Virus record (IMG/VR): IMGVR_UViG_3300009130_000028
Coordinates: 1,441-65,440 of that record
Source: a virus
Taxonomy: Duplodnaviria; Caudoviricetes
Length of the DNA stretch: 64,000 nt
Strand: one strand, 5' to 3'
The position numbers were made by a program, and so were the translations under genes. The notes under the pieces were generated by a model. It was given only the letters and a program-made list of their open reading frames with translations. It made no database searches and was not told where the DNA came from. Positions 164-60,587 of this stretch are shown piece after piece. Within the stretch, counting starts at the first letter, position 1. Every line of letters begins with the position of its first letter.

Positions 164-475
164 TCATATTTCTCTAAGATTTTTTTGAATTGCTAGGTAT
201 AGCTTTTCGGATATATCTTCTGACATAACTCTATATCCTTTTTCTTTGGTAAATTTTTCGGCTTCTTCATATGTATGAAACCCAACAAAGATTCTTTCTT
301 TTGTATACTTATTGCTATTGTGATATGGTTTAATTGTATATACATTCCATTCAAAACTTTCTATTAGTGGTGCTTTAGAGTAACTTGAATTGATTTCACA
401 ATTTAATAAGTTAATAGATGCAGGAGGATTATATCGTAATTCTATCCATGCTTCGGGTTTATTAAATTTCTCCAT
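164..475 (-). CDS. hypothetical early protein
   Basis: 103-aa ORF in a tightly packed minus-strand run; no recognisable motif. Confidence 0.7.
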   Translation of the reverse strand: MEKFNKPEAWIELRYNPPASINLLNCEINSSYSKAPLIESFEWNVYTIKPYHNSNKYTKERIFVGFHTYEEAEKFTKEKGYRVMSEDISEKLYLAIQKNLREI

Positions 476-2631: not shown

Positions 2632-3084
2632 TTATTTACTGTTTACGTTGTTATTTAATTCGATTAGATTCAGGTTCAATGTCTTTTTGGCTAAAGACGG
2701 TAGTTCATCTTTGACCTTGACAATCACTTCCTTGAATTTCAACGCTTTGCGATTACTCTTCATATCATATACACAGATATGGTTCTTCCTTCTGGGAAGT
2801 TCCTGTATTCTGTTGTTGTATTGAAATGGCAAGTTAAGCAGGTTGCAAAACTCTAGTGCAAATCTCTTTGCTTTGTCGAGTAGTCTCCCTTGTTTGTCGA
2901 AACGTCTTGCGTTGTTTTCTACAGTGTACACGACATTATGGTCGTTCGGTTGTATCAATAATATTTGATACCCAAGCACATCACTTGTCTTGTTTGAATT
3001 AGCAAGAAAGTGGATAGGCTTTACTGTAATGAATGCTCCCTTATGTATTATTTTAAGGTAGTCTTTACGATTAATCTTTCTCAT
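2632..3084 (-). CDS. hypothetical early protein
   Basis: 150-aa basic ORF. Confidence 0.65.
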   Translation of the reverse strand: MRKINRKDYLKIIHKGAFITVKPIHFLANSNKTSDVLGYQILLIQPNDHNVVYTVENNARRFDKQGRLLDKAKRFALEFCNLLNLPFQYNNRIQELPRRKNHICVYDMKSNRKALKFKEVIVKVKDELPSLAKKTLNLNLIELNNNVNSK

Positions 3085-3156
3085 TTTAGTTTAAGATTAT
3101 GGACCGTAGTCCGTTAGTAATTAATTTAGAAAAAAAGCCAAAAGAAAAAAAGAACG

Positions 3157-3246
3157 CTATATGTTGGCTATCCATATTAGCACTGACACCATAGCATAAT
3201 ACCATAGTGTCCAGACAATGATTCGTTTTACATTTTCACTCATCAT
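3157..3246 (-). CDS. small single-TM peptide (not in ORF track)
   Basis: MMSENVKRIIVWTLWYYAMVSVLIWIANI (29 aa) with an A-rich leader. Confidence 0.4.
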   Translation of the reverse strand: MMSENVKRIIVWTLWYYAMVSVLIWIANI

Positions 3247-3272
3247 TATAGTTTTAAAGGTTAAACATTCAG

Positions 3273-3383
3273 TTAATTACCAGTTACTCCCCATACTATG
3301 AATAGGGTGAGTAGTGTTATCATTACTAGGATAAGAGACCATACTAATCCCCATAATTTACGGATAAAGTCATCATTGTTCAT
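3273..3383 (-). CDS. small single-TM peptide (not in ORF track)
   Basis: MNNDDFIRKLWGLVWSLILVMITLLTLFIVWGVTGN (36 aa); ATGA overlap with the upstream stop. Confidence 0.5.
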   Translation of the reverse strand: MNNDDFIRKLWGLVWSLILVMITLLTLFIVWGVTGN

Positions 3384-3601
3384 AGCCTTACCCTCCTTGT
3401 AATAGTAACATTGTGGTCTTTGAGATTGTACTCTTCACCTTGTGGGTGACTTTCCATCTCTTTAATAAACGCACTAATGGTGGGTGCTTCGGATTGCTTA
3501 ACAATCTTATCACCTCCAGGTATCTTAATGATATACTCCTGCATTTCACTAAAACAACTCATAGTTAATAACTGCCATAATACCGTTAGGTACACCTTCA
3601 C
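3380..3601 (-). CDS. hypothetical protein (true start probably the internal ATG of MQEYII)
   Basis: ORF track; stop coupled to the downstream ORF. Confidence 0.5.
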   Translation of the reverse strand: MKVYLTVLWQLLTMSCFSEMQEYIIKIPGGDKIVKQSEAPTISAFIKEMESHPQGEEYNLKDHNVTITRRVRL

Positions 3602-3900: not shown

Positions 3901-4233
3901 CTAGGACTTATTAGTTAGATTCTTTTCTTTAACCTTATCCCAACAAAGTGCACAGAGAGTATAGGTATTTCCCCAATCATCCAATTTTTCGTGTGATGTA
4001 GCAAGTGGCTTTCTTTGCTTACACCAATCACACCATACATACTTACCACGCTTTGTAGCTATTTTATGATTAATTGAATGAGCTAACTCAAGCATCTCAT
4101 CAATCTCATCATCGGTATACCACTTATTCTCTGAATCATCAGACCTACCTCTCATAAACTGTAAGTCAAGACCATTACTGTTAACAAGAGAAAGTATGTG
4201 GTTAACCTCCTTATCATTTAACACTACTTCCAT
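3901..4233 (-). CDS. hypothetical protein with C-terminal Zn finger (CxxC...CxxC)
   Basis: CDWC and CALC motifs; preceded by the repeated leader motif. Confidence 0.7.
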   Translation of the reverse strand: MEVVLNDKEVNHILSLVNSNGLDLQFMRGRSDDSENKWYTDDEIDEMLELAHSINHKIATKRGKYVWCDWCKQRKPLATSHEKLDDWGNTYTLCALCWDKVKEKNLTNKS

Positions 4234-4509
4234 ACTAATAAATGCCTACTACTTTACTCATAGGACTTTGTTTAATTAATAAATTGGCTTCTAAGCCATT
4301 GAACTATCGTTTGTAGGGTAACTATCCAAATTATGAATTAAAGCCTTAAGATAGCTTTAAAATAAGTGTAAGGCTATAATTACCACTGCTATACATAACA
4401 CCATTACCCAAGGAATGGGAGTATAAGCTTGTAGGCTTTACACACAAAAGACACAAGCCAAAGGAACAGAAAGCATTACTTATGATAGTGAATTTCTTTC
4501 TTTGGTGCT

Positions 4510-4623
4510 TATATAGTACCTAGTGTATATAGTTATATATATATATATTACTTATATATAGTTATATAGTATATATAGTTATATAACCTAGGTATTTAAA
4601 ACCTAGGTAGTGTAAACCTAGGT
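4510..4623. repeat. AT-rich TATATAGT repeats plus three phased ACCTAGGT palindromes (candidate replication origin)
   Basis: TATATAGT at about 4510, 4526, 4555, 4563 and 4572; ACCTAGGT at 4586, 4601 and 4616 (15-bp period). Confidence 0.75.
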
Positions 4624-4637
4624 GGGAAATTATTTAA

Positions 4638-4692
4638 GGCAATACTCTTGATTGCCATAGCTCTCAGGGAGGATATCGCTTCCCCCCTGAGA
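4638..4692 (-). terminator. two stem-loops just downstream of ORF 4709..5677
   Basis: GGCAAT-n7-ATTGCC and TCTCAGGG..GGA-n7-TCC..CCCTGAGA inverted repeats; no clear U-tract. Confidence 0.45.
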
Positions 4693-4708
4693 TGGTTGCT
4701 AGCCTAGT

Positions 4709-5677
4709 CTAGAATGTAGCAAGTGCAAAGTCTGAGTTGTCAACCATCACAGCCTTTTCTTTCAGCTGTTCTTGTTGCTTAACCCATTCTTTCTTGCTTG
4801 CGCTACTGTATGAAAACAGTGTTGCAACTCCAGACTTACTGATGGTCACTGGCAAGGATGTATCTCTTGGTCCAGCAACTCTCAGTGCCTGCCCTAAAGC
4901 TGGGCTGTCAGGTGCACAGTGTTGTTCATTAATCAAATCAGCAACTAGGTTGGCAATTCGATTGGAATCACAACAGTATGCATCAGCAACAGCCATCACA
5001 GCTTTCTTGATGAATGCATTCTCCTTGATTTTACCATCACTATAACTAGTGATAATCTTTTCAAGGGAATCCCTTTCACTTGAAGAACAGCCTTTTTGAA
5101 TAAGCATATCAACTGTTTTTTCAAACAATTGTTCTGCATTTTCAAATGACATACCCTTGAAGTGAGCATTCTGGTCTTGAAAGCTTAGCTTTACAGCTTG
5201 ATAGGCAATGACATTGTCACCTTTCTGTGAAAGGGCAGATGCAAAGATAGCTGGACTATCGGCTTTCAAGCCCAAGGTCTCAGCATCTTTGGTCGTTGAC
5301 TTCCACAATCCAGAATCATCAAGCATAGCTTTCGCTTTCTTGACATCAAACTGACCTTTGACCTTAATGGTCGATAGCACTTTAACAAATGCAGACAATC
5401 TGCCTTTGTTGATAGCACTCAGGTCGCTTGTGGAGCTGTAAGTTCCAGTGTCAAGGTTGGTAAGGAAAAATGAATACATCATACTCCCTACAACCGAGGT
5501 GTCAAGATAAATACAGTTGGTCGCTTTCAAATCAGTATTGACAAGCGTCTCTGACCTTCCGGACAGAACTGCATTTCTTGCTGGTACAAAACGCTCCAGT
5601 ACTCTGGTGTTTTGGTCAACAGACTCACCTAGCCTAGCAATTTGGCTAGCAATAAAAGAATTTTGGACTTTCTCCAT
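4709..5677 (-). CDS. orphan 322-aa protein, first gene of the leftward transcription unit
   Basis: long ORF, Ala/Ser-rich, visibly more GC-rich than its neighbours; no motif recognised. Confidence 0.75.
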   Translation of the reverse strand: MEKVQNSFIASQIARLGESVDQNTRVLERFVPARNAVLSGRSETLVNTDLKATNCIYLDTSVVGSMMYSFFLTNLDTGTYSSTSDLSAINKGRLSAFVKVLSTIKVKGQFDVKKAKAMLDDSGLWKSTTKDAETLGLKADSPAIFASALSQKGDNVIAYQAVKLSFQDQNAHFKGMSFENAEQLFEKTVDMLIQKGCSSSERDSLEKIITSYSDGKIKENAFIKKAVMAVADAYCCDSNRIANLVADLINEQHCAPDSPALGQALRVAGPRDTSLPVTISKSGVATLFSYSSASKKEWVKQQEQLKEKAVMVDNSDFALATF

Positions 5678-5689
5678 AATTCCATTTTC

Positions 5690-5956
5690 GAGGTGGCTTA
5701 CTACCCCATTATTAAGCTGGTTTTCGGATAGCTACTGCATACTTGCAGGCTATTACCTACTCTGTAAAACCCAGCGACGACTATAAGTCGCCAGCCCTGT
5801 AATGCGAATCGCACATTACAACGACTTGTGTTTTATAGCTTTCCAAGCTGTCGCGTCTAATCACATAGACTGATGAAGGGTTGGCTGACTTAATACAGCT
5901 CATAACCCTGAAGGTCGACAGACCTTGGGTGGCTAATGGTACACAAATACCATTAC
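5690..5956. ncRNA. candidate structured non-coding element (ncRNA, 5' leader or ssDNA hairpin array)
   Basis: nested and consecutive helices covering almost the entire interval (see findings). Confidence 0.5.
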
Positions 5957-6178
5957 TGAAAGAACAAAAATTAAAAAGGAAATAAATGGTTCCATATTCT
6001 CAAATTATGATACAGGTAATTAATACCCCCTACTTTCTTTTTTTTATTTTTCTTTTTTTATATAATATAGTCCTCTCGCTCGGAGCTTATGTTCAAAAAA
6101 ATAGTATTTATTATTGGAGTGTTTTAAATAATAATTGTTATTATTGTAACAATATGGGGGTTATTTCCCGTTAATACT

Positions 6179-6436
6179 GTGTATATGGAGCGTGTTAGTG
6201 ATGGCATGTATGTGCAGAGGTACTACTCCACTGATTTTTTTACTTTGGATGAGGTAAGGGATTATGAGATGGATAGGTTATGGGGTTTAGGTGTGGAGGT
6301 ATTGGATTATGAGTTTAAGATTGGGGTTAAGCATGGGGAGTTAATTTTTTATTTACTTTTGTTATTTCAAAGTCTTGATGGCGAGGAATTGTCATCGGAC
6401 ACATTGTTTAATCATAAAAACTTAAATCATGAGTAG
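6179..6436 (+). CDS. hypothetical protein, first gene of the late block
   Basis: 85-aa ORF. Confidence 0.55.
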   Translation: MYMERVSDGMYVQRYYSTDFFTLDEVRDYEMDRLWGLGVEVLDYEFKIGVKHGELIFYLLLLFQSLDGEELSSDTLFNHKNLNHE

Positions 6437-6575
6437 CTATAAATTACCACAGGGTTATGGCAAGGGGGGTAGAAAGAATGGTACTACCATTCATCCATCT
6501 TCGCAGAAGCCAGGTAGCGGTTCGGGGAACTTGTACAAGCAGCAGTCTAAGGTTCCACCTATTATAAAGAAGTAG
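6429..6575 (+). CDS. small basic Gly/Lys-rich protein (not in ORF track)
   Basis: MSSYKLPQGYGKGGRK...PPIIKK (48 aa) exactly fills the gap. Confidence 0.5.
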   Translation: MSSYKLPQGYGKGGRKNGTTIHPSSQKPGSGSGNLYKQQSKVPPIIKK

Positions 6576-6576
6576 T

Positions 6577-7095
6577 TTGAAGCGTTTGTTTGACATAGAC
6601 GATACTGGCAAGGTAGAGTTAGATGATAACACCTACATGCTTATTCCAGAGTTGTCTGATGTTTACAAGCATAAGAAGTTAGGCTGGAAAGCCATCACAT
6701 ATATTGTTTGTGTGTGTGACTACCATAGTCCTTACAGGCAGCTACTGTTAGCCGACAGGATTGATGCTGTTTGTGAGGATATCTATGGTACAAAGAATTA
6801 TCCTCCATTGGCTTTGGACATTGTTGATAGGGCTATGGAGAAGTACAAGAGGTTGCAGTATGACCCCATCTATGAGCAGTATAATATATACACAGAGAAG
6901 TTAGCTGAGTATAATGATTATGTAAGGAAGATGCCCATAGAGAGTGACAATGCTAAGATGTTACAGGAAGTTATGTTAGGTCAGGAGAAGCTTGTTGCAG
7001 CGAGAGAAAATTTAAAAGACATCATTCTTAAGGCGGAAGATGAGAAGCTCCAGGGGGGAGGGGGCATATCTTTCCTAGAGGAATACAATTCATAA
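6577..7095 (+). CDS. putative terminase small subunit
   Basis: helical 172-aa protein upstream of terL; LIPEL...DYHSPY pattern and C-terminal coiled coil; inferred from synteny. Confidence 0.5.
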   Translation: MKRLFDIDDTGKVELDDNTYMLIPELSDVYKHKKLGWKAITYIVCVCDYHSPYRQLLLADRIDAVCEDIYGTKNYPPLALDIVDRAMEKYKRLQYDPIYEQYNIYTEKLAEYNDYVRKMPIESDNAKMLQEVMLGQEKLVAARENLKDIILKAEDEKLQGGGGISFLEEYNS

Positions 7096-7099
7096 AGTA

Positions 7100-7372
7100 A
7101 TGTCATATAAAGACGAAAAAGAAACGAAAGCTGGAAGCAAGGCTAGTAAAAGAGCAAAAAATAAGGGCTATACAAGCGAAGGCACTACAAAGACAAGGAA
7201 AACCAAACAAGGTAAGCCTACAGGACCAAGAAAGTTTTTTGGTAAGCTAGCAAATCTGTTTAGGAAAAAAAGCAAGAAGAAGAAGTATAAAATAACAGGC
7301 ACTAAAAGGACTGAGAAGCTTGGAAAAAACAAAAAGAAACCAAGCGCTAAATATTCAAAACCAATGTTTTAG
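7100..7372 (+). CDS. very basic small protein
   Basis: Lys-rich 90 aa. Confidence 0.6.
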   Translation: MSYKDEKETKAGSKASKRAKNKGYTSEGTTKTRKTKQGKPTGPRKFFGKLANLFRKKSKKKKYKITGTKRTEKLGKNKKKPSAKYSKPMF

Positions 7373-8037: not shown

Positions 8038-8477
8038 AAAGGTGGTTTGTTGTTGTCAAGTTATTATTTATATGGGGCTGTGGTCAGCCTGACCATTACC
8101 ATGTAGAGCAAGAGCCATATCCTTCCAAAGATAGCATACTACAGCTTGCCGATGAGGTGATGGAGTATGTGATACAAAAAGAAAACATAAAGCAATCTGC
8201 TTTAGATTCATTGTCTAGTAGCTTGTTAAATACTAAGAAGCTTAGCTCTGAGCAGATAATAGAGATGTCTAGAGAGCTTAGAAGAAGCAAAAGAGAGAAC
8301 CTTAGTTATGAAAAGGAGCTAGATGATTATAAGACCAAAAGGGTTGTAACTGTAGATTCTGTTATTTATGACATAGATACTATTAAAAAGAATCATTATA
8401 TCACAGACACATTATATGACACTGTTACCATCTATTATGTCGATACTATAAAAAGAAAGAAAAGGAAAAGAAGATAA
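8034..8477 (+). CDS. predicted lipoprotein with coiled coil (spanin-like?)
   Basis: MKRWFVVVKLLFIWG-C signal; DS/DT-rich C-terminal repeats. Confidence 0.5.
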   Translation: MKRWFVVVKLLFIWGCGQPDHYHVEQEPYPSKDSILQLADEVMEYVIQKENIKQSALDSLSSSLLNTKKLSSEQIIEMSRELRRSKRENLSYEKELDDYKTKRVVTVDSVIYDIDTIKKNHYITDTLYDTVTIYYVDTIKRKKRKRR

Positions 8478-10330
8478 TGCTTAAATATTCTCCAGTGGTA
8501 AAAGAGGGCATCCCTGCATACAAGAAGTATAGCAAGGACTGGAAGAAGTATTGGGCATTACAAAAGGATAGGTGCTTAAATGGCTATAAGCCTAGTGGTG
8601 GTGTAAGGATTAATGGTGCTTACTACTTCTATCTAAACTTCTGTAAGATTAGCGCAAGGGATGAGAAGACTAACAGGAAGAGGCTACAGAATCCTTGGTA
8701 TAGGGATTTAGACCACGAATACTTTGATTTGATATATGATGCCAAGAAGAATGGTCATGGGGTCATTGTCTTAAAGGCAAGGGATAAGGGGTTCTCATTT
8801 ATGAACTCTGCATTGCTATTATACGAATGGAGCTTCTATCCGTATAATGAGATAGGCATAGGGGCGGCATCGCCTGTCTATGTAACGTCTGTAAGGAACA
8901 AGGTACTTAATGCCTGGAATAAGCTACCACCAGAGTTTCAGCACAGAAAAGACTTGGCTGATAATGAGTATAGGATGATTGCTGGTCAGAAGGTAAAGCG
9001 TGACGGGGTATGGATGGAAGAGGGCTTTAAGTCAATCATACATTTCAGGTGTATGGATAATCCTGATGCCTTTAGGGGGGAGAGGCTCTCTATGATGATA
9101 TTCGAAGAGGCAGGGGAGTTCAAAGACCTACAAAGAGCATATATGTCTAGTGAGGCTTGCTTTAAAGATGGTGCTGTACAGTATGGAGTACCTATTATTG
9201 GTGGAACATCCAATGTAATGAATAAGTCACAAGACTATATGGAGATGTGGTATAATGCAGAGAAGTACAATCTAAAGCAGTTCTTCATACCAGCTTCTAA
9301 GGCACTATTTGGATTCTTTAATAAGAGAAAAGGAGAAAGCGACATTGAGGGGGCGAAGCAATTCTTTAAGGAAAAAAGAGAAGTTCTATTTAACTCTCCC
9401 GACAAAACAGCCTACTACCTACACATACAAGAGCATCCCCTCTCTCCCGAAGATGCTTTTGTACAGGCTTCTAACACACCATTTGACCTGGAGAAACTAA
9501 ACACCCAGATATCTAGGATACTAAACGATACAAAGCTAAAAGGTACTATTACTAGGGGAACACTAGAATGGAAGAATAGGGCAAAGCTAGAAGTGAAGTG
9601 GATACCACAGGTGGATGGTAAGTTCCAAATACTATACCATCCAAACAAAGAGATGATAAACCTAGACATAGGCGCTGTGGATAGCTACTACCAGACAGAA
9701 GCACCTAACTCACCATCGAAAGGATGTGCTATGATATTCAGAAGATGGAACGAAGGTTCTAAAGCATCTAACCTTCCTATAGCCATGTATCTAGACAGAC
9801 CATATACTAAAGATGAATGGTATGATAACAATTTGAAATTATTTGCGTATTACAATGCTAAGGCGCTGGTAGAATACACAGACGAACAATTTTTTGACTA
9901 TTTTGTAAAACAAAAGGCAACTAAATTTCTTAAAGAAAGACCTAGAAGTGCAGACTCTCCTTGGTCAAAAGTGAGTAATAAATATGGTGTTCATATGAAG
10001 GTTTACCAGAAGAATTTGATAATAGATATGATTGATGACTATGTCAAGAAGTTCTCCGAAGATATTTATTTTTTAGATTTGTTGGAGGATTTAGCTAATT
10101 TTGGGGTTAAGAATACTGATGCTGCCATGGCTTTTGGTATAGCGCTCTTGCATGATTCTGATAATAGTAACGTAAGAGTGATGCATATAGATGACGAAAA
10201 GAAGAAGGAAGAATACTTCTTACCTAGATTCTCTATGCGAGGGGATGGAAGCGTGGCAGTTATTAATAGTAAGAACTTTGGTATGGCTAAAAAAAGTAAC
10301 GACCCATTGGGATTATTTAACAGCTTATGA
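8477..10330 (+). CDS. terL: terminase large subunit
   Basis: YYFYLNF; Walker A variant LKARDKGFS; Walker B IFEEAGE; GGTS coupling motif; RNase H-like GAVDSY; directly upstream of portal. Confidence 0.95.
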   Translation: MLKYSPVVKEGIPAYKKYSKDWKKYWALQKDRCLNGYKPSGGVRINGAYYFYLNFCKISARDEKTNRKRLQNPWYRDLDHEYFDLIYDAKKNGHGVIVLKARDKGFSFMNSALLLYEWSFYPYNEIGIGAASPVYVTSVRNKVLNAWNKLPPEFQHRKDLADNEYRMIAGQKVKRDGVWMEEGFKSIIHFRCMDNPDAFRGERLSMMIFEEAGEFKDLQRAYMSSEACFKDGAVQYGVPIIGGTSNVMNKSQDYMEMWYNAEKYNLKQFFIPASKALFGFFNKRKGESDIEGAKQFFKEKREVLFNSPDKTAYYLHIQEHPLSPEDAFVQASNTPFDLEKLNTQISRILNDTKLKGTITRGTLEWKNRAKLEVKWIPQVDGKFQILYHPNKEMINLDIGAVDSYYQTEAPNSPSKGCAMIFRRWNEGSKASNLPIAMYLDRPYTKDEWYDNNLKLFAYYNAKALVEYTDEQFFDYFVKQKATKFLKERPRSADSPWSKVSNKYGVHMKVYQKNLIIDMIDDYVKKFSEDIYFLDLLEDLANFGVKNTDAAMAFGIALLHDSDNSNVRVMHIDDEKKKEEYFLPRFSMRGDGSVAVINSKNFGMAKKSNDPLGLFNSL

Positions 10331-12600
10331 GTATAACGATATTTCCAAAGCAGAATATACCTGACTCACAAAAGAATAAAAAATGGGTTAAGGACAACAT
10401 CAGTGCGATGATGAGCTATCAGGATTATACCCTCAAATATAATCGTGAAAGGAAAAAAGATTATGAAAACTATCAAATGTATAATGGGGTAATAGACGTT
10501 AAGTCATTTGAATATGTGACTAATGTTTACGGTATAACCTCTCCTGCCAGGTTGGTGAACCACCCCATTATTGCTCCTAAAATAGATTTGCTGGTAGGAG
10601 AGTTTATGAGCCAGCCATTACAGTTTAGTGTAGAGTCTATTGACAAAGACTCTATTACCAAGAAGCTAGAAAAGAAAGCTGGTCTTGTCCTAGAGAAAGT
10701 CCTTAAGCCTATAAGGATGGAGATAGAGAAGGAGCTAGGCATCACAATAGCAGAAGATGATTATGGCTTTGAGATACCTGACGATGTAGATGCTTTTATG
10801 CAGATGAACTTTAGAGAGCAGACAGAAGAGATTGTAGAGAACGGTCTTAACTATCTAATCCAAAGGTATAGCCTAAAGCATCTCTTTAAGACAGGGATGT
10901 ATGACCTGTCTATTACAGGAAAAGAGTTCTATCATGTGTCTATCAAGCAGGGAGACCCATATGTTAGAAGGGTGGACCCCAGGTCATTGATATATGACGT
11001 AGACAGCGAAACAGAGAACCTACAAGACTGCAACTGGGTTGCTGAAGAAAGATATCTTACCGTAAATGAGATACTTGACGAATACGGACCTTGGCTAAAT
11101 GTAGAGGATGTAAATCTTCTTGAAGAGCTAAGGATGGCAGGGTTTGATGATTTGAATAGATATAACAAGCCCTATCAATGGTATTTCAAAGGAACGCAAG
11201 CTTCTCCATTAAGGATTCGTGTTGTTAGCGCAGAGTGGAAATCGCTAAAGACGATGAACTTTAAAATATCAGAAAACAAGTATGACCCTGAAGTGCCTTT
11301 CAGAAAGCTTCTTCCTGACGGGTATAAAAAGAAAAAGGGAGATAACATACAAAGAAAGACAGTTACCGATATATGGCTAGGAACACAAATAGGTCATGAT
11401 ATATTGGTTAATTACAGGCGAAAGCCAAATCAAATAAGAAAAGAAAGTAGTTATTCTAACGCACCACTAAGCTATGTGGGAGTGATACAAAACAATATAG
11501 ATGGTATCACTCTATCTGTTGTTGATGCATTAAAGAACATACAGATACTTTATAACATTGTTATGTACCATATAGAGTTGTCATTAGCTAGAAGTGGTGG
11601 TAAAGCTGTAGTATATGATACATCACAAAAACCAGACGGACTCTCATTGGATGATGTCTTCTACCATGCCAAAAATAGCGGTGTCATACCAATTAATTCC
11701 AAGCAAGAAGGAAACCAAATCTCAACATTCAATCAGTTTCAACAAATCGACTTTACATTATCCAACTCAGTCCAGCAGCTATTGAATCTAAAGATGATGC
11801 TAGAGCAGACAGCGGAGTCTGTTACTGGTATCACTAGGGCAAGAGAAGGGTTTACAAAAACTGATGCTGTCGGTGTTAATGAAAGAAATGTTCTTCAATC
11901 AAGCTTAGTAACACAGCCATTGATTGCTCTTCATAGCAAAGTTATGGAGTATGTGTTTCAGCAATTAGCTGATTTGATGAAGATAGCCTGGAATGATGGA
12001 AGGAAAATATCTTATGTCCTTGGCGACTATAGGGCTAAGTTCTTTGAGGTGACCTCAGACATACGAAATAGGGATATGGGTATATTTGTTACTAACACTG
12101 GTAAGAACAAGCAAGATAAAGAAGCATTCCTTCAGTTTGCTCAATCTGCATTACAGGCAGGAGGCGTTGACTTCCTTGATGTAATAAAGGTTTATAACTC
12201 AGATACTGCAAGGGAGGCAGAGGCTGTCCTTGAAAGTGGTCTTAATGCTATGAAGCAGCAACAGTCACAGATGCAAGAGCAACAGATGGAGATGCAACAA
12301 CAGGCACAACAGGCAGAGGCACAGGCTAAGCAGGCTGAACAGCAAAGCGACGAGGCTGATAGACAAACCAAGCTTGAAGTTGCTAAGATTAATGCAGATA
12401 CCATGCTCAAGACCACTCAGATGAAGATTGATGGCGGTCAGGAAACGCAAGACTTTAGGCAGAAGCATGATATGGATATGTCTATGCTTAATGCTTCTAA
12501 TGACATGGGTAAAAAAGAATTTGACAAAGAGCTAGAAGCTAAAGATAAGTCCACTGAGCAAGTTCTTAGTGATGCTGATAAGAAAGTAAAAGATAAATAA
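10327..12600 (+). CDS. portal protein (crAss-like)
   Basis: follows terL; PIIAPKIDLLVGE and TGITRAREG motifs; Gln-rich C-terminal barrel coiled coil. Confidence 0.92.
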   Translation: MSITIFPKQNIPDSQKNKKWVKDNISAMMSYQDYTLKYNRERKKDYENYQMYNGVIDVKSFEYVTNVYGITSPARLVNHPIIAPKIDLLVGEFMSQPLQFSVESIDKDSITKKLEKKAGLVLEKVLKPIRMEIEKELGITIAEDDYGFEIPDDVDAFMQMNFREQTEEIVENGLNYLIQRYSLKHLFKTGMYDLSITGKEFYHVSIKQGDPYVRRVDPRSLIYDVDSETENLQDCNWVAEERYLTVNEILDEYGPWLNVEDVNLLEELRMAGFDDLNRYNKPYQWYFKGTQASPLRIRVVSAEWKSLKTMNFKISENKYDPEVPFRKLLPDGYKKKKGDNIQRKTVTDIWLGTQIGHDILVNYRRKPNQIRKESSYSNAPLSYVGVIQNNIDGITLSVVDALKNIQILYNIVMYHIELSLARSGGKAVVYDTSQKPDGLSLDDVFYHAKNSGVIPINSKQEGNQISTFNQFQQIDFTLSNSVQQLLNLKMMLEQTAESVTGITRAREGFTKTDAVGVNERNVLQSSLVTQPLIALHSKVMEYVFQQLADLMKIAWNDGRKISYVLGDYRAKFFEVTSDIRNRDMGIFVTNTGKNKQDKEAFLQFAQSALQAGGVDFLDVIKVYNSDTAREAEAVLESGLNAMKQQQSQMQEQQMEMQQQAQQAEAQAKQAEQQSDEADRQTKLEVAKINADTMLKTTQMKIDGGQETQDFRQKHDMDMSMLNASNDMGKKEFDKELEAKDKSTEQVLSDADKKVKDK

Positions 12601-13672: not shown

Positions 13673-15043
13673 ATGAGATTTCATACAGGGTCTTACGGAA
13701 AGGAGACTATTGAGAACAATTCGTTAGTAACGAACCTCTTAAAGTATCCTGAAATTAGTAAAGCACTTATCCGTCAATTTCCTCAGTACTCCTTGACATA
13801 TTTCTTGGAAGGAACAGGTCGCTTTGCTAAAGAAGAATTAATTGGCGACAATGCCTTTAAATGGGCAATCTTAGGAAGGTTGAATCGACCATCTACTTGT
13901 ACTGGTACAACTGCTGGAACAGGTGTTGGTAATACAACTTTTACAGTTGAGTTTGTTGAAAACTTTTTAAATGCTAACGACGTTGTTAGATTTAAAGACG
14001 GAACACAAGCTATCGTAATCGGAGACTTGGTTGTTTCTGGTGGTGGATTTACTGCTACTTTGAAACTGCAAACCAACTCTAATACTGCTACTTTCGTTGC
14101 TGCTAACGCTGCTGCTGGAGAAACAGTTAATACGATTGGCTCTAACTTTCCTGAAGGTTCAGACAAAGGATATGAGAATCATGTATATCCTGACTGGTAT
14201 GTAAACTATCTAACTACTGCTCGTAAAGCTAAGTCTATTACAGGCTCTGCTCTTACTGACGTTACTTGGATAGAAAACAATGGTCAGCGATTGTGGTTCT
14301 TTACAGACCAAAATATCGTTATGGAAGAATACCTATATCAGCTTGAGTTAAGCCGATGGTATGGTAGAAGCACGATGGATATCAACGGTAATGGTCTTGT
14401 AACCGATGCTGATGGAAAAACTTTAGTTGCTGGTGATGGGTTATTATCACAAATTGATGCAGCTAACGTAGACACTTATACTGGAGGTCTTTCTGAAGAT
14501 ATCATCTTAGATTTTATTGCTAACCTTTCTCTTAATACAGGAAAGAAGAATAGCTCTTGGATGGTTTTCACAGGAACTGCTGGTAGAGTGGCATTCCACA
14601 GAGCAATGCGTGATTTGATATTCCAAGGCGATGCAATGATTTATGACATTGACGCTGGAAGGGATATTCAAATTGGTGTGAACTATAATGTATACTATGC
14701 TTTAGGGCATAAAATCACATTGGTTCATAACCCATTGTTTGATGACCAAAACCTTCACACTGACATTGACCCAACTTCAGGATATCCAAAAGAGTCCTTT
14801 AGAATGGTGTTTATGGACATGGGGGTAACTAATGGTGTATCTAACGTAGAAGTCAAGGTTAAAGGTGCTGGTGGTGTTGACCGAGGAATGATTGTAAAAT
14901 ACATTCCAGGTATGGTTAATCCATTCGACCAAAAATCTATGGTTTCTTCCAATGCTAAGGATGGCTTCACTTGTGAAGTTCTTTCCGAGTCAGGATTGGT
15001 AGTTAGAAATCCATTGTCTTGTGGTCAGTTGTTAAAGGCGTAA
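13673..15043 (+). CDS. major capsid protein (crAss-like)
   Basis: 456 aa; position; motifs EGS..., GDGLLSQI, VFTGTAG, GHKITLVHNPLFD, YIPGM. Confidence 0.9.
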   Translation: MRFHTGSYGKETIENNSLVTNLLKYPEISKALIRQFPQYSLTYFLEGTGRFAKEELIGDNAFKWAILGRLNRPSTCTGTTAGTGVGNTTFTVEFVENFLNANDVVRFKDGTQAIVIGDLVVSGGGFTATLKLQTNSNTATFVAANAAAGETVNTIGSNFPEGSDKGYENHVYPDWYVNYLTTARKAKSITGSALTDVTWIENNGQRLWFFTDQNIVMEEYLYQLELSRWYGRSTMDINGNGLVTDADGKTLVAGDGLLSQIDAANVDTYTGGLSEDIILDFIANLSLNTGKKNSSWMVFTGTAGRVAFHRAMRDLIFQGDAMIYDIDAGRDIQIGVNYNVYYALGHKITLVHNPLFDDQNLHTDIDPTSGYPKESFRMVFMDMGVTNGVSNVEVKVKGAGGVDRGMIVKYIPGMVNPFDQKSMVSSNAKDGFTCEVLSESGLVVRNPLSCGQLLKA

Positions 15044-19479: not shown

Positions 19480-22400
19480 ATGTCAGAAAGGATTACAAAT
19501 AGCTTCAATGGAGGCATGAACAGAGACCTTGACAAGAAGTTAAGGAAGAATGATACCTACTCTAGAAGCGTAAATGGAAGATTAGTATTTAACGAAGAAG
19601 GAACATATTCTTGGGAAAATGCTGTTGGAAACATCAACTCTATATCTAGTCTTCCTGTAAACTCTACTATTATAGGAAATGCTCAGTTTACAAATCTTCT
19701 TGTAGTATTTCTAATAGTAAGCACTTCTAGTGGAGATGAATATCAAATAGGTATAATAAAAACTGATATAGATGGATTTGGCGAGTATTATCCATTAATA
19801 GATAGCCTAGGCACTCCAGATGCTCCACTACTAAACTTTAATACCAAGTATCCATTACAATGTAGCTCATTCCACGAAAGCGATAGTTTGCTAAGAGTGT
19901 ACTTTACGGATGACTATAATGAGCCAAGAGCATTTACGTTTAAGGTTGATGATGGTGCTTCTTCGGGATATTCTGCTGTAACATCTTCTGTAAAGCAGAT
20001 GGGAATAACGGTTAATTGGGAGATGTCTCCATTAATCGTAACAGAACAAGCTCTTGATAACGGAACACTATTGTCTGGAATGTATCAATATACTTACAGG
20101 CTTACAAATGAGGATGGTTACGAGACACCCTGGTTTCCTCTTTCCAGACATATAGTTGTCTTTGCAGGAACAGATGACGAAGGATATGATTGTAATCTAG
20201 ACTATTTAAATACAGCGACATCAAAAGCAAACAAAATTGTAATAAACAATATAGATGTTGACTATAAGACTATTGAGGTAGCTTATGTCTTTTCTGTCAC
20301 TTCTAGCGCACCTTTGGAGGCTGCTATATTTTATTCAGAAGAAATAGATAAGGGAAATCCCAATCTTGAAGTTGTTCATTATTCTAATGAAGGTCAAGCG
20401 ATAACCTTAGAATCCATTGTTGATAAGGTTCAGTTTATAAGAAAAGCAAAGACTATAGCCGTTAAAGACAACAGACTGTGGTTAGGAAATATAGAGTCAA
20501 CAGAACTTATTGATATCCCAGATGCTGTATTTGACGACCTTAATATAGAGTTAAATGTCAAAGCAATCCTAGACGACCATTCAGATGGTGGTGTTCATAA
20601 AGACTTAGGAGGCGATGCGTTTTATGATGGTGGTAGCTATTCAAAGGTAAGAAGGTCGGGAGTGTTAAACCAGCAAGTAAAGACAAATAAATATAATACT
20701 ACAGGAGGAACAACAGAGTATGTATCCAGAAAGGCTCGTTGGTCGGACTATACTGACCCTATTATAGAGCATGCACATACAGGATACTTCAGGGGCGAGA
20801 CATATCGGTTTGGTTGCACCTTTTTCGATAAAAAGGGTAATGATATGTTTACCGTTCATTTGGCAGATATTTCTATGCCAAGGCAAAAGTCAAGCACTAC
20901 TTCTGCTCCAGACGATACATCTGTTTTAAGCTGGACAAGAATAAAGTCAGATGGGGTTTTACAAAATGGAAGCAATACATATGATTGCCAACATCTTAGC
21001 TCTACCTGTGGGATGCTTTCATCTATGATAAACAAGCAGGCTGGTTATGGGGCAGTTTCAGATATCACAGCAGGAGATATGGGGGAAAATGATAATTATA
21101 AATATACTGACTTTCAAAGAATAGAGACCTTAAATAGTAACCCTAATGACTTAGATGAGGATAAAATATATAATACTGGCGATGGATTGAATCTAGATAC
21201 AGACTCTTGTCTTCATTCGTGGATAAAAATATTAGGATTAAGATTTAGTGGAATTAATTTAGATGTTCCTGTAAATGGCACTCCTTTGCATGAGCTTGTT
21301 GGCGGATTCAAGATTGTAAGAGTAGCAAAGCAGGATAAGGATAGAAGAATAATAAGACAGGGATTATGGTTCCAGGCTATCACTGACAGTTATAATGACC
21401 CTACAACAAGACCAAATCCACATCCTGCTAATTGGAGCCCTACCTCTAATGTTTTAACTAATGTAGAATCATGGAACCAAAGATACAATAATGGTAACGG
21501 AACTGGCACTTCTGCTATATATGAAAAGTTTGTAGGAGAGTTTTTTAGCCCAGATATTGCCTTTGAAGCCACCACTCCTATTAAATATGAGAATGAAAAG
21601 CTGATGACAGTAAGCTCTGTGTGGACTACATCTTTAAATGAAAGCAAGTCCACAGCAGGGATTAGCGGATGTTGGTGGGGTAGCTTTATAGGGTCAGGTA
21701 CTCCTTTTGCAAGTAATGGGGCAAATGGTGTTATAGATAAAATAGCAAATGATTATACAGGAGCACTTGGCGGATATGATGAACAGCATTCTATCAAGGG
21801 AATACCTTTTGGTGGAAACAGAAATGATAATAATGATTATAGTAATGACAGAAGGCATCATCATTATTTGCATAAACTGTATAATTCAAGAAGTAGTAGA
21901 GATTTTAATTCAGACCAGAGATATGTTTCAGCAGGCAAAGAGCTTGGATGGCGAGGCGACTTTACTGTATTTGGCATAACTAATGGCTCTAGCCTTCCTA
22001 GTGGAGAAATAACAATGCCAGATGGAAAGATTTTTTCTCCTGCTGCATTTATGTCATATTATGGTTCATTTAAAGAACAAACAGTTGGCACAGGCTCTAG
22101 TAGTAACTGGATAGATGATAAGTTTAAGGGAGACAAAGAAGATGAATGGCTTAGGGCATCTTTGAACACTAAAAGCATTATACTTCAGGTGCAGCCAGAG
22201 GTACAACTTGGATTCTATGGCGGCAATGGTGGGTTTGCATATAATGGCACACCTGTTTGTTATTGGGTGCTAAACTGGGAAAGAGATATTGAGGATGAAG
22301 GAATGTATGGTGGTCAAACAGAGAATGCGTTACAACAAAACATATTTGAGACAACAGGTCATTTTCAAGAAGTTAATGATTCAGTTATTAGCAGTAATGG

Positions 22401-24027
22401 AGGTGTTTTTGACAATATAGATGTATGGGGAGGCGATTGTTATTTGCAATACTTTTCGTGGGGAAGGCTTTATCCAAAAATAACATTGGATGATGGCGAG
22501 ATACAAAATCAAGATAGTTTTTGGAAGAATAGGTTTAATGATTATAGCCAAGGATTTGTATTTCCTGTAGAGTCAAAATACAATTTTAAACTACGTAGGT
22601 CTAGGCTTGACTATACTAATTCAACCTATGACCAAGTAGGATTTACACGACAAGGATGGCTTTCTGGAGAGGGGCAGCCAACATCAACTGTTGCAACAAA
22701 TGTTAAGAATGGACTATTTGTTTCAGGAACATCTTCAACACAAAAAATAGAGAAGTTTACTATTAACGAGCTGGTGTTGGATAATGAAGGATTGAGATTC
22801 TATTTCCCTAAGCCAGCAGATTTTGTGGATAGGTATGATTATCCTACTAGGTGGACATGGAGTGAAGAGAAGAAGCCTTATTCAGAGAACGTAGATAGAT
22901 TCAGGAGGTTTGGAGAGATTAGCAACTTCGACCTTAATGCTACTCTTGGAGAGGTAATAGGAAACGGTGTCTTGTTTGATAATATATATTCTGTTCAAGA
23001 AAAAGGATTTGGAAGGCTGAGGATAGCCGATAGAGCAATGCTACAATCCACACAAGGAGCAGATATTGTTCTTGGTGAAGGAAGCACTATGGCTGGTATA
23101 GACTACATATCAAAAACATTTGGCACTCAACACAGAGATAGCGTTTATAGTTCTGATAAGAATATCTATTGGATAGATGCTAGGATGGCTAAGATAATGA
23201 GGTTTGGTCAAGACGGCATGACGGCTATAAGCGATACAAGCGGATTAAATCAGTATATGAAATCCTATCTTAAAGGTATGGAGACCATAGACGATAGATA
23301 TAATATTGGTGGAATACATACAGGGTATGATTATGAGAACAACGATGTTTTGTTCTCTGTTGTTCATAATGCCTGTAAGAACAAGGATGAATTCTTACAA
23401 GAGAACGAAACATATCCAAGCCCAGGCAGTGAAAGCCAAAGAAGGTCAGGGGAGGCGTTTTCTTATGATAAATTTGATAAAAATTGCTTAACTATTTCGT
23501 ATAATGAAAATATAGGTTCTTTTGTAAGCGAGTATTCCTATCATCCAAAAATGTATATGAATATAGGAAAGTTTATGTATACACACAAAACACCAGGAAA
23601 AATACACCTTCATAATAAGGGAAAGATTGGAGAATTTTATTCAAATACTTATTATTCATACTTAGAGTTTTCAGTAAACAAGTATCCAAGTGTTAGCAAA
23701 CAGTTTGATAATATGGTTTTGAACATAAATGAAGATGGTGTAAAAAGATTATTTACCGCAGATTTTCTTTCAGACATAGATATCTCTGCTAATGTAAATA
23801 TTAGAAGTGAAAATATTCTTGTAAATGGATATGGTGTAAATAGAAGAGCTAGATATAGAGGCGGTCTTTTGCGATTTCCTATGAGAGATTTAGACAAATT
23901 ATTGCCTAGTGGGAAAAGACTTACAGGAAAATCTGTTGATGTTAAATTAAAATTTGAGAACTTTGAAGAAGAAAGGGCTACTATTACTAGCGCTGATGTT
24001 CTTGCAAGGGTTAATCATAGAGTATAA
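19480..24027 (+). CDS. tail stabilisation (muzzle) protein
   Basis: NSFNGGMNRDLD N-terminus; YFTDDYNEPR; KDNRLWLGNI; YFRGETYRFG; GGDCY. Confidence 0.9.
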   Translation: MSERITNSFNGGMNRDLDKKLRKNDTYSRSVNGRLVFNEEGTYSWENAVGNINSISSLPVNSTIIGNAQFTNLLVVFLIVSTSSGDEYQIGIIKTDIDGFGEYYPLIDSLGTPDAPLLNFNTKYPLQCSSFHESDSLLRVYFTDDYNEPRAFTFKVDDGASSGYSAVTSSVKQMGITVNWEMSPLIVTEQALDNGTLLSGMYQYTYRLTNEDGYETPWFPLSRHIVVFAGTDDEGYDCNLDYLNTATSKANKIVINNIDVDYKTIEVAYVFSVTSSAPLEAAIFYSEEIDKGNPNLEVVHYSNEGQAITLESIVDKVQFIRKAKTIAVKDNRLWLGNIESTELIDIPDAVFDDLNIELNVKAILDDHSDGGVHKDLGGDAFYDGGSYSKVRRSGVLNQQVKTNKYNTTGGTTEYVSRKARWSDYTDPIIEHAHTGYFRGETYRFGCTFFDKKGNDMFTVHLADISMPRQKSSTTSAPDDTSVLSWTRIKSDGVLQNGSNTYDCQHLSSTCGMLSSMINKQAGYGAVSDITAGDMGENDNYKYTDFQRIETLNSNPNDLDEDKIYNTGDGLNLDTDSCLHSWIKILGLRFSGINLDVPVNGTPLHELVGGFKIVRVAKQDKDRRIIRQGLWFQAITDSYNDPTTRPNPHPANWSPTSNVLTNVESWNQRYNNGNGTGTSAIYEKFVGEFFSPDIAFEATTPIKYENEKLMTVSSVWTTSLNESKSTAGISGCWWGSFIGSGTPFASNGANGVIDKIANDYTGALGGYDEQHSIKGIPFGGNRNDNNDYSNDRRHHHYLHKLYNSRSSRDFNSDQRYVSAGKELGWRGDFTVFGITNGSSLPSGEITMPDGKIFSPAAFMSYYGSFKEQTVGTGSSSNWIDDKFKGDKEDEWLRASLNTKSIILQVQPEVQLGFYGGNGGFAYNGTPVCYWVLNWERDIEDEGMYGGQTENALQQNIFETTGHFQEVNDSVISSNGGVFDNIDVWGGDCYLQYFSWGRLYPKITLDDGEIQNQDSFWKNRFNDYSQGFVFPVESKYNFKLRRSRLDYTNSTYDQVGFTRQGWLSGEGQPTSTVATNVKNGLFVSGTSSTQKIEKFTINELVLDNEGLRFYFPKPADFVDRYDYPTRWTWSEEKKPYSENVDRFRRFGEISNFDLNATLGEVIGNGVLFDNIYSVQEKGFGRLRIADRAMLQSTQGADIVLGEGSTMAGIDYISKTFGTQHRDSVYSSDKNIYWIDARMAKIMRFGQDGMTAISDTSGLNQYMKSYLKGMETIDDRYNIGGIHTGYDYENNDVLFSVVHNACKNKDEFLQENETYPSPGSESQRRSGEAFSYDKFDKNCLTISYNENIGSFVSEYSYHPKMYMNIGKFMYTHKTPGKIHLHNKGKIGEFYSNTYYSYLEFSVNKYPSVSKQFDNMVLNINEDGVKRLFTADFLSDIDISANVNIRSENILVNGYGVNRRARYRGGLLRFPMRDLDKLLPSGKRLTGKSVDVKLKFENFEEERATITSADVLARVNHRV

Positions 24028-52769: not shown

Positions 52770-53036
52770 ATGAATCCATTAATTATGAAAGCGTTTGCTA
52801 AATTAGTCTTAGGTAAGAATCTAAAAAAAGCAGGAAGCATTGCATTGAAAGTATTAGATAACGCAGCTTTAGGAGGTGCTGTTACTAAGACAATGCAAGA
52901 AACAGGAGAAAGCGCAAAGGGTAATATTCCTTATCTTGAGGTAATATCTTCCCTGGTTCCTGTTGTTCTTTTAATATCTGTTCTGGCTGGTTGGATTGAT
53001 GTTGCCCAGCTTAAAGAACTTTTAAAATTGTTTTGA
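52770..53036 (+). CDS. holin-like membrane protein
   Basis: C-terminal hydrophobic helix; follows the endolysin. Confidence 0.55.
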   Translation: MNPLIMKAFAKLVLGKNLKKAGSIALKVLDNAALGGAVTKTMQETGESAKGNIPYLEVISSLVPVVLLISVLAGWIDVAQLKELLKLF

Positions 53037-53272
53037 TGTATTTTGTGGAAGTACCCGTTGCCCAAAGGGAAGGAAAGTCTGAGTCTTATACCATTAATGT
53101 TTCTAACATAAATTATATTAGAAAGTGGGTGGGGCATAAAGGAGAGTTACAATCGGTGATATACTTCCAAGGTAATGATGCTAAATACATAGTAGTAGCA
53201 AAGCCATTAAATGAGCTTTTAAGTTTACTAGGTATTAATAGCATCAATACAGAGAAAGTAGTTGCAGAGTAA
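53033..53272 (+). CDS. hypothetical protein (INVSNINYI motif), last late gene
   Basis: 79-aa ORF converging on the minus block. Confidence 0.55.
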   Translation: MMYFVEVPVAQREGKSESYTINVSNINYIRKWVGHKGELQSVIYFQGNDAKYIVVAKPLNELLSLLGINSINTEKVVAE

Positions 53273-53284
53273 TGATAGTGAACA

Positions 53285-53452
53285 TCACTTATTCGCTATT
53301 TGTGTTAAACGAGCTTTTAGGACTATAGTAAAGTTACAGTTATCACAGCATCTACCGTCGTTTATTGGTTGAGCGTTGTGACCTCTATCCCATATTATTT
53401 CGTCTTGCCACATTTGTTTTTCTATTTCGCCTTGGCATATTGAACATTTCAT
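53285..53452 (-). CDS. small Zn-finger protein (not in ORF track)
   Basis: MKCSIC...GHNAQPINDGRCCDNCN (55 aa); ATGA overlap with the HNH gene stop. Confidence 0.65.
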   Translation of the reverse strand: MKCSICQGEIEKQMWQDEIIWDRGHNAQPINDGRCCDNCNFTIVLKARLTQIANK

Positions 53453-59666: not shown

Positions 59667-60587
59667 TTAATCATATTGATAGTATTCTTTTAGTTCGTTT
59701 ATTGATGACTCTCCTAGTTTAAACTCTTCGCATACCTTTCTGTTCTCCCAGTCATTCTCATTAGTCCATGGCAGCTTTATCATATCTGATGCCATTTCTT
59801 CTCTGCACCCTAAACATACATAGCAACACCATGATTCTATGTATTCTGGTTGTTCATCTAGCCAACCAGGGTCGCCACAGTAGTCACAGCACTTGCTTTC
59901 TTCTACAAGTTTAAGTTGGTTGCTGTCTGCGTCTATGTCGTTATGCTCTCTTTCTTCACTCCAAACATTCCTGTTGAAGTATGAGCCAAATCCAATTGAG
60001 CTTTGTGTTCTTTTTGGATAAAGTGTTTTCGACATAGTATAGCCTCTTGATTCTACCCAATTTCCTAGTGTTAATAAACCTAGTCTGTGGTGTAGTAATA
60101 CTAGCCTGCTGTCATCTACGAATTTAAGAATTAATTTCTGTAATATCTTGTTTTCATAGATTTCTTTTTGGGATAATTTAGATAAATACCAGGTAGCAAA
60201 TCGTTGGGTATCACTTACGTCTTTCCTGTCGTTTAAATCACTTATAACTCCATTGTGCATTAACAAGGTTTTCTTTGTGTTTAACCCTTCTATTCTCTTC
60301 CTTATCCTTTTATTCTTTGTTATCTCAAAAGGATGTGTGGTAAATGAATCTTTCTTTCCTGATGTTGCCCATCTGAAATGCATTATCACTGTATCCTTTT
60401 TTCCAAACCTATGATTATTTATGCGGTCAATAAACTTATCTTTTTCCATAAACCCTTTTTCATAGTTTACTGTTTTGTTTCTTATCCACATAAATCCTGC
60501 ACCATGGGGGTTGTCATCCCATGCATCGTCTATTATTTCTCTTGAAGGCATAGACTCACCTTCTTTCTTTATTATAATTATACACAT
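59667..60587 (-). CDS. class II (Ntn) glutamine amidotransferase with C-terminal Zn finger
   Basis: N-terminal MC; NPHGAG; HFRWATSG; HPF; HNGVI; SDT. Confidence 0.9.
   Translation of the reverse strand: MCIIIIKKEGESMPSREIIDDAWDDNPHGAGFMWIRNKTVNYEKGFMEKDKFIDRINNHRFGKKDTVIMHFRWATSGKKDSFTTHPFEITKNKRIRKRIEGLNTKKTLLMHNGVISDLNDRKDVSDTQRFATWYLSKLSQKEIYENKILQKLILKFVDDSRLVLLHHRLGLLTLGNWVESRGYTMSKTLYPKRTQSSIGFGSYFNRNVWSEEREHNDIDADSNQLKLVEESKCCDYCGDPGWLDEQPEYIESWCCYVCLGCREEMASDMIKLPWTNENDWENRKVCEEFKLGESSINELKEYYQYD

Follow-up and report, generated by a model that had tools for sequence, protein, structure and literature searches.

A hyper-structured unit of proposed leader, orphan gene and tail in a marine crAss-like phage, where a hypervariable region has a conserved boundary

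The virion RNA polymerase of phage N4 uses hairpin promoters, the hairpins of which share conserved stem and loop sequence, and the genomes of single-stranded RNA phages and the Obelisks are coding RNAs with pervasive structure. The crAss-like phage phi14:2 is reported to make abundant early long non-coding RNAs, which are intergenic and of unknown function; its virion polymerase (gp66) is reported to transcribe DNA in vitro when this is single-stranded or denatured, and no common motif was found upstream of the early transcripts (bioRxiv 10.1101/2020.03.07.982082). No early promoter of the virion RNA polymerase of crAss-like phages is known. The PeSL are reported to be promoter/terminator cassettes of T4-like phages (PMC4122927). 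The locus analysed here, a hairpin array at positions 5690-5956, belongs to a 64,000-nt stretch of DNA (hereafter the window, to which all unqualified coordinates refer) that covers nearly the whole of the IMG/VR virus record IMGVR_UViG_3300009130_000028 (65,440 bases, completeness estimate 58%), and gene content places the phage, a marine one, among the Crassvirales (crAss-like phages).

A preliminary description of this DNA, made from the letters alone, had presented the array as a discrete element of about 270 nt and had considered an unclassified phage non-coding RNA, a switch-like leader or N4-type hairpin promoters. The structural signal proves to be real and strong; the boundaries drawn at that time were too narrow and the phage type was wrong. 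The array opens a longer unit of some 1.5 kb (4493-5985, read on the minus strand), which comprises a proposed leader, an orphan gene and a tail and is packed with hairpins throughout, with far more base-pairing than either its composition or the encoded protein would call for. This hyper-structured unit comes first in the leftward gene arm, where a conserved boundary adjoins a hypervariable region; the main new result is that the folding runs on past the start codon. The folding excess, its extent, the anatomy of the unit and its conserved boundaries are all directly observed. The parts of the unit and its two boundaries are the following (ORF, open reading frame):

5690..5956, no strand assigned: hairpin array of two multi-branch domains and two trailing hairpins (folding z; helices read in the sequence)
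5678..5985, putatively minus strand: untranslated stretch from the orphan start codon to the conserved block, the proposed 5' leader (ORF map; folding z)
4709..5677, minus strand: orphan gene P0001, 322 aa, paired throughout its coding sequence (ORF map; shuffle tests)
4493..4708, minus strand: 3' tail of the unit, with a G+C-rich hairpin at 4662-4692 and tandem repeats
5986..6075, no strand assigned: conserved block, the right boundary of the unit, with GGTTCCATATT at 5988-5998 and ATAATATAGTCCTC at 6062-6075 (alignment)
4483..4492, plus strand: strictly conserved 10-mer TGATAGTGAA, the left boundary of the unit, with other copies at 2603-2612 and 53273-53282

The extent of the excess emerges from a scan of the 64 kb in 150-nt segments, in which the folding energy was regressed on G+C and the residuals were expressed in standard deviations (sd). 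Among 1278 minus-strand segments, 18 of the 25 most over-folded fall in 4451-5950, and the mean residuals of the leader (-1.66 sd), the orphan coding sequence (-1.74 sd) and the 3' tail (-1.71 sd; segments 4234-4708) compare with +0.27 sd for the other leftward genes and -0.01 sd for the rightward arm. With its -1.74 sd, P0001 ranks first of 39 ORFs for sense-strand over-folding (the runner-up reaches -1.00), and the other orphans of the leftward arm are not over-folded (+0.13 sd for 2632-3084 and +0.47 sd for 1224-1667). The adjoining coding sequence and the tail being as over-folded as the array, a discrete element of about 270 nt is not tenable. The predicted fold of the whole unit consists of local domains closed by a low-complexity long-range helix; a rod-like, viroid-like fold was rejected (rod-like fraction 0.09).

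In the coding sequence of P0001, the sense strand folds at -334.4 kcal/mol against -261.7 kcal/mol for dinucleotide shuffles (z -7.50) and the antisense strand at -296.2 against -250.5 kcal/mol (z -5.22). By the same measure, a control gene (59667-60587) yields -187 against -169.2 kcal/mol (z -2.29), and the first 968 nt of the capsid gene reach z -5.14 with an excess of only 27 kcal/mol. A more stringent control is a shuffle of synonymous codons, which keeps both the protein and the codon usage: in 25 such shuffles of P0001 the sense energy averages -259.1 +/- 7.5 kcal/mol, so that the native gene is better by 75 kcal/mol (z -10.0), compared with z values of -2.7/-2.6 and -5.1/-3.3 (sense/antisense; excesses of 16 and 33 kcal/mol) for two control genes. 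The advantage of the native gene over its synonymous shuffles indicates that the arrangement of synonymous sites encodes a large amount of base-pairing. The excess over dinucleotide shuffles is greater for the sense than for the antisense strand in the window (73 vs 46 kcal/mol) and in the corresponding cassettes of two related phages (38 vs 19 kcal/mol in L003, 22 vs 11 kcal/mol in L010); this roughly twofold gain of the sense strand in all three cassettes is modest evidence of selection at the RNA level.

The array itself holds eight or nine hairpins nested in multi-branch domains. In domain 1, GCTGG-TTTT-CGG (5716-5727) pairs with 5762-5775 and encloses the helices ATAGC/GCTAT and CTGCA/TGCAG; in domain 2, AGTCGCCAGCCCT (5786-5798) pairs with 5877-5890 around three hairpins; two trailing hairpins follow, AAGGTC/GACCTT (5911-5926) and TAATGGTA/TACCATTA (5934-5955). 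The minimum-free-energy fold of the plus strand recovers both domains and the trailing hairpins, and the arms listed as 100% complementary in the inverted-repeat search comprise TGTAATG/CATTACA, GGTTTT/AAAACC, AGGGTT/AACCCT, AAGGTC/GACCTT and TAATGGTA/TACCATTA. The fold and the inverted-repeat list agree, and every helix named in the preliminary description lies where that description had put it; the observations that the array is richer in G+C than its flank (0.435-0.445 over 5600-5899 vs 0.27-0.315 over 5900-6199) and that it abuts the orphan gene (ORF 4709-5677, minus strand) likewise stand, the array beginning 13 nt upstream of the start codon at 5677 and reaching to the conserved block. 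The dense folding also beats dinucleotide shuffles on both strands (n = 200): as RNA, 5690-5956 folds at -88.3 kcal/mol on the plus strand (shuffles -63.89 +/- 4.58; z -5.33) and at -88.8 kcal/mol on the minus strand (shuffles -69.21 +/- 4.09; z -4.79), and with DNA parameters at -45.6 kcal/mol (shuffles -26.07 +/- 3.51; z -5.56), with 0 of 200 shuffles as good in each of the three comparisons. For the whole untranslated stretch (5678-5985) the z values are -6.45 on the plus and -4.43 on the minus strand (own script, 60 shuffles). Each leader fold loses about 28-33 kcal/mol on transfer to the other strand. Direct repeats within 5678-5985 are limited to four of 6-7 nt, and the hairpins have no common stem or loop. 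A terminator-like site occurs only once, at 5793-5775 (minus strand), and this site is weak.

Searches of Rfam 15 returned no match at gathering scores over the whole window and none in five related loci; with E values up to 10, the region 5300-6400 gave only two matches at chance level, snoJ33 (16.9 bits vs 45; E 2.4) and the DUF2815 RNA (16.7 vs 41.2; E 5.5), in agreement with the previous characterization of the array as unclassified folded non-coding sequence where the gene arms diverge. ARAGORN found no tRNA or tmRNA in the window or in 11 related loci. The region 4700-7100 has no blastn match among 50,697 phage records, and protein-pattern scans of viral contigs (13 pattern matches) and of metagenome contigs (162 pattern matches) revealed no relatives. 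A 19-mer from the array is absent from the viral contigs, and blastn of 4240-6180 against all fetched related loci retrieved only words of 15-16 nt. These negative results apply to collections from which the window's own genome, and records very close to it, may be absent. A scan for sigma-70-type promoters gave 5 sites against 7.0 expected, and TAnnTTTG, the Bacteroidota-type promoter motif, occurs 79 times against 78.4 expected and not at all in 5678-6100.

P0001 matches no Pfam and no PHROG family. Its relatives comprise a cluster of 99% identical proteins, an 81% identical C-terminal fragment and one protein with 27% identity (E 4.3e-4); a weak relative is the gene at the same position in L003 (BLASTP E 0.051; also recovered in a profile search), and profile comparison with the orphans of L008 and L015 gives E 0.18 and 0.64, respectively. 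The 322-codon frame at about 42% G+C, taken together with the distant protein relatives, argues for a real, fast-evolving gene. An AlphaFold2 model built from 6 sequences is unusable (mean predicted local distance difference test score, pLDDT, 37.5), and the ESM Atlas gave no usable match.

Related contigs, designated here by L numbers, were obtained in terminase-based and neighbour-gene-based scans, and none exceeds 71% terminase identity except for one contig of 4.9 kb with an identical terminase, which stops before the site. The genes that the relatives conserve on the right-hand side encode an 82-88-aa protein, a 172-175-aa protein and the terminase; on the left of the divergence point there are only orphans in every relative examined, and nucleotide similarity to L003 begins only at position 6185. 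In codon shuffles, these orphans score z -9.9/-8.5 in L008, -4.8/-3.2 in L003, -4.5/-3.3 in L015 and -2.9/-2.4 in L010 (sense/antisense), compared with -1.6/-0.4 for a conserved control gene of L010. The L008 orphan (2829-3521, minus strand) is A+T-rich, has a copy of the 10-mer on either side and matches P0001 in its degree of over-folding, but has no detectable protein similarity to it (E 0.18). Strongly folded non-coding stretches are found beside the orphans of L003 (824-983, z -4.2/-3.2) and L010 (609-986, z -4.5/-3.9); the non-coding stretch 1730-1833 of L015 is weakly folded. Over-folding is thus in part a property of this place in other phages. The idea that the array is a version of a conserved structured spacer beside the block was dropped, the spacers of L003, L010, L143 and L138 having |z| <1; those of L015 and L148 are moderately over-folded.

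The conserved block that bounds the unit on the right is made up of GGTTCCATATT, a stretch of about 65 nt, and then (T)ATAATATAGTC(C/T)TC (at 5988 and 6062 in the window), and it is found whole or in part in L003, L005, L009, L010, L011, L012, L015, L138, L143 and L148. An alignment of eight sequences shows that what separates the two boxes is a hairpin in the relatives and an A/T-rich run in the window; the sequence of the hairpin differs from phage to phage, which indicates that structure is kept while sequence changes. The block itself (5986-6075) is not over-folded (z +0.90 and -0.91). Six leftward genes stand between the block and the conserved rightward genes in L015 and its kin, and the block accordingly travels with the variable region and is not simply a promoter of the structural operon. 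A 15-mer from the block matched 106 viral stretches, of which only two, L062 and L089 (contigs of L010 and L009), also carry the genes next to it. The first box opens a mini-ORF (M/V/L-V-P-Y...) of 4 to 62 codons across the phages; in the window this mini-ORF (5986-6174) follows AAGGAAATAA and would encode a hydrophobic peptide of 62 aa.

The 10-mer TGATAGTGAA at the left boundary has three copies in the window, where 0.23 would be expected, and a count of three was attained by 0 of 100 shuffles. All 19 sites examined in the window and the relatives have the same orientation and are intergenic, beside minus-strand orphan ORFs, and at 7 of the 19 the motif lies 0-43 nt after a stop codon. The carriers, with terminases 65-71% identical, are L003, L006, L008, L010, L015, L136, L138, L139, L143, L148 and L152. 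A position-weight scan yielded no near-matches, the conservation being confined to the 10 bases, and no copy falls in the array. A terminator-like hairpin directly precedes the motif in L008; no conserved stem-loop accompanies the motif in general. The 10-mer might be a promoter, a stop, a processing site or a recombination site. At the far end of the rightward arm, the TAA that closes the last rightward ORF (53033-53272) runs in frame into the 10-mer, giving TAA TGA TAG TGA (53270-53282), and on the opposite strand a Cys-rich ORF of 55 aa (53285-53452) stops 2 nt short of the same copy, which puts the motif at 53273-53282 exactly at the convergence of the two arms. In L015, a lookalike of a tRNA T-arm, GAGGGTTCGATTCCCTC (about 425-450, minus strand), lies beside a 10-mer; ARAGORN finds no tRNA there. 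The tail of the unit, just inside the left boundary, carries iteron-like tandem repeats, namely a 17-nt A+T unit x3.9 (4526-4585) and the 15-nt unit AACCTAGGTAGTGAA x2.6 (4585-4623), and the region 4526-4623 could be an origin or a binding array. Outside the unit, the conserved 172-aa gene (6577-7095) contains, in 6651-6850, two segments with residuals of -4.2 and -3.3 sd, which place them among the most strongly over-folded sense-strand segments of the 64 kb; the L003 homologue of this gene has a codon-shuffle z of -4.2.

The assignment of the phage draws on the Crassvirus muzzle protein at 19480-24027 (Pfam PF25731, crAss_MUZ, E 8.2e-103) along with the following genes:

8477-10330: large terminase
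10327-12600: portal
13673-15043: major head protein

According to the ORF map, genes run rightwards from about 6.0 to 53.3 kb and leftwards in 1-5.7 kb and 53.3-64 kb, and the right-hand leftward block carries genes for replication and recombination, among them those of a DnaB-like helicase, an exonuclease and a NinB-like protein. Should the two leftward blocks be joined through the missing part of the genome, they would form a single long arm with the site at its head; 'early' and 'late' are tentative labels of the arms, suggested by gene content. The cumulative G-C skew turns at the site. The giant ORF at 30100-43539 (4479 residues) has no Pfam or PHROG family, and searches with the part surrounding residue 2455 gave no match in the PDB or in the phage collection. 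At residue 2455 it contains a DFDGD motif of the two-barrel kind; a motif of this kind was used in the phi14:2 study to recognise the crAss-type virion RNA polymerase (bioRxiv 10.1101/2020.03.07.982082). The ORF presumably encodes a fused cargo and virion-polymerase protein that has diverged beyond recognition, an identity suggested by this one DFDGD motif. A run search with words from the window listed 20 runs, all of DNA and none of RNA, which come from 10 studies with marine, cold-seep and sediment labels; shares of 0.24-0.69 of the sampled words in runs of several studies suggest that diverged copies exist.

Based on the above observations, the reading that we prefer, with a probability of about 0.42, is that the array is the 5' leader of a single leftward, hyper-structured early transcript that runs through the orphan gene. 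The existence of this transcript, its strand, its timing and the benefit of its structure are what we infer. The unit would be transcribed leftwards as one RNA from a start within the conserved block or close to it, and selection would act on the dense pairing over the full length of the transcript, the stacked hairpins acting generically and independently of their sequence and constituting neither a ligand switch nor a specific promoter. The hairpins might shield the first early message from nucleases; alternatively, fast self-folding might free the nascent RNA from its template, a release that would matter if the virion polymerase works on single-stranded DNA as phi14:2 gp66 reportedly does in vitro. 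What tentatively favours a leader on such a transcript is the excess that continues over leader, gene and tail, the codon-shuffle z values, the larger gain of the sense strand, the over-folded orphans of the relatives and the position of the array directly upstream of the gene; the absence of a tRNA, a tmRNA or an Rfam match seems to count in the same direction.

Several observations weigh against this reading. No homologue of the array was found in the blastn, pattern and 19-mer searches, and the sigma-70-type and TAnnTTTG scans identified no promoter for the proposed transcript. The antisense strand of P0001 is also far over-folded, by 54 kcal/mol (codon-shuffle z -12.3), which makes a cause at the DNA level possible. 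In the leader, the plus strand scores slightly better than the minus strand (z -5.33 vs -4.79 for the array, -6.45 vs -4.43 for the untranslated stretch), and the G-U pairs, 6 in the plus and 10 in the minus fold at nearly equal energies, leave the strand undecided, as the preliminary description had already remarked. Among the relatives, a conserved control gene of L003 reaches a codon-shuffle z of -4.2/-2.1; the leader of L008 (z -0.4/-0.5) and the stretch 519-598 of L010 (z -1.05/-2.2) show little folding; the conserved spacer from the last 10-mer to the block is unstructured in four of six relatives (L003, L010, L143 and L138); and the folded stretch 609-986 of L010 is cut off from the next ORF by a copy of the 10-mer, an arrangement that fits an independent non-coding unit.

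An independent unit of this kind, that is, a fast-evolving small non-coding RNA on either strand that merely adjoins the orphan gene and is made first in the arm, is an unlikely explanation of the array, its best argument being the same 378-nt stretch of L010, which is bounded by 10-mers on both sides in the manner of a cassette. The folding z of the array is as strong as that of many real RNAs, the slightly better score of the plus strand in the leader would suit such an RNA, and the phi14:2 report provides a precedent in the abundant early long non-coding RNAs (bioRxiv 10.1101/2020.03.07.982082). However, neither a terminator nor a 10-mer intervenes between the array and the gene, the one terminator-like site being the weak one at 5793-5775, the folding excess passes unbroken into the gene, the searches produced no Rfam match and no homologue, and the phi14:2 region 2905-3589 is not over-folded (z -0.32). 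The over-folding of both strands, in leader and gene alike, and the z of -5.56 with DNA parameters would be explained if the hairpins act in the DNA, as entry or start sites of the virion polymerase, as single-strand priming signals of an origin or as cruciforms that affect DNA entry. The iteron-like repeats in the tail, the turn of the cumulative skew at the site and, as reported for phi14:2, a virion polymerase that reads single-stranded or denatured DNA and early promoters without a common motif are all compatible with such a role, which is nevertheless improbable: the hairpins have no shared recognition sequence, neither promoter nor origin needs over-folding across about 1 kb of coding sequence, the gain is larger for the sense than for the antisense strand in three of three cassettes, the skew turn also follows from the switch of the coding strand, and the polymerase identity of the giant ORF comes down to a single DFDGD motif with no family, PDB or phage match.

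Selection need not be invoked if the hairpins are a functionless by-product of the hypervariable region, for example quasi-palindromes perfected by template switching or the result of a recent acquisition from a donor of different composition. The occurrence of nothing but orphans left of the divergence point in every relative examined, the somewhat higher G+C of the unit relative to its surroundings, the folding of both strands and the lack of sequence shared with the relatives are in line with this explanation. Yet an excess of 75 kcal/mol (z -10) in an intact frame of 322 codons is hard to obtain without selection, other orphans of the same arm are not over-folded (+0.13 and +0.47 sd), and the property recurs at this place in other phages in genes that are unrelated or barely related, all of which makes a neutral origin quite unlikely. 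A more general proposition, which appears speculative, extends selection to the clade: the first messages of the leftward arm, or the DNA, would be selected for extreme self-pairing as an adaptation to the start of infection, with the 10-mer as punctuation of the early system. An injected virion polymerase would work on a single-stranded template from which a fast-folding RNA frees itself or, alternatively, the pairing would protect against nucleases of host or phage or against RNA-guided defence; the 10-mer would then be a sequence-specific start, stop or processing site of the phage transcription machinery.

The locus offers, in first place on the arm presumed to be early, an apparently selected structure that includes coding sequence, a conserved block of about 90 nt and a strict 10-mer between variable cassettes. 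Should the structure or the 10-mer be read by the phage transcription machinery, this would be a first handle on the start of gene expression in a very abundant order of phages; otherwise, the unit is an unusually clear case of synonymous sites shaped by base-pairing.

The early long non-coding RNAs reported for phi14:2 are the nearest biological precedent for the array: the phage belongs to the same order, and non-coding stretches lie near the start of its deposited early gene region, but there is no sequence similarity to the array and the intergenic region 2905-3589 is not over-folded. Positions 4031-4500 of phi14:2 (L135, NC_021806) contain a tmRNA gene according to ARAGORN (tag GSSVQKLAMVA), which is not called by Rfam at the gathering score and which falls inside an intergenic region that is reported as highly transcribed long non-coding RNA. 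The literature searched contains no report of non-coding RNAs in Crassvirales transcriptomes besides the phi14:2 paper, which is not proof of absence.

The resemblance to N4, on which the preliminary description had drawn, is that, in a phage with an RNA polymerase packaged in the virion, short DNA hairpins lie close to the genes expressed first. The analogy does not hold, given that the phage belongs to Crassvirales, that no N4-type polymerase family matched the giant ORF and that the hairpins of the array share only words of 6-7 nt, are nested in multi-branch domains and continue as folding through a whole gene; an N4-type promoter array thus fails on the type of phage and polymerase as well as on shared hairpin sequence. 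Like Rfam leaders and riboswitches, the array is non-coding, comprises several helices, immediately precedes a start codon and can form alternative helices, but it has no family match, no conserved core and no recognisable expression platform. A riboswitch is unsupported, alternative helices being expected in any helix-rich 270-mer and the Rfam riboswitch and leader families giving no match. Of the earlier proposal of a leader or switch, the structured leader survives as the preferred reading, and the switch-like part, for which there are only the alternative helices and no Rfam family, does not.

The likeness to the PeSL (PMC4122927) is one of layout: in a hyperplastic region, variable and mostly orphan genes are separated by copies of a short conserved sequence, and the gene content of relatives differs at exactly these places. 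The difference is that conservation here is limited to a strict 10-mer, which has no conserved stem-loop to itself, and that the array lacks the 10-mer. Finally, P0001 is, as in single-stranded RNA phages and Obelisks, an ORF embedded in sequence that is base-paired throughout, but here this sequence is a gene of a double-stranded DNA phage, and its predicted fold is a series of local domains rather than a rod.

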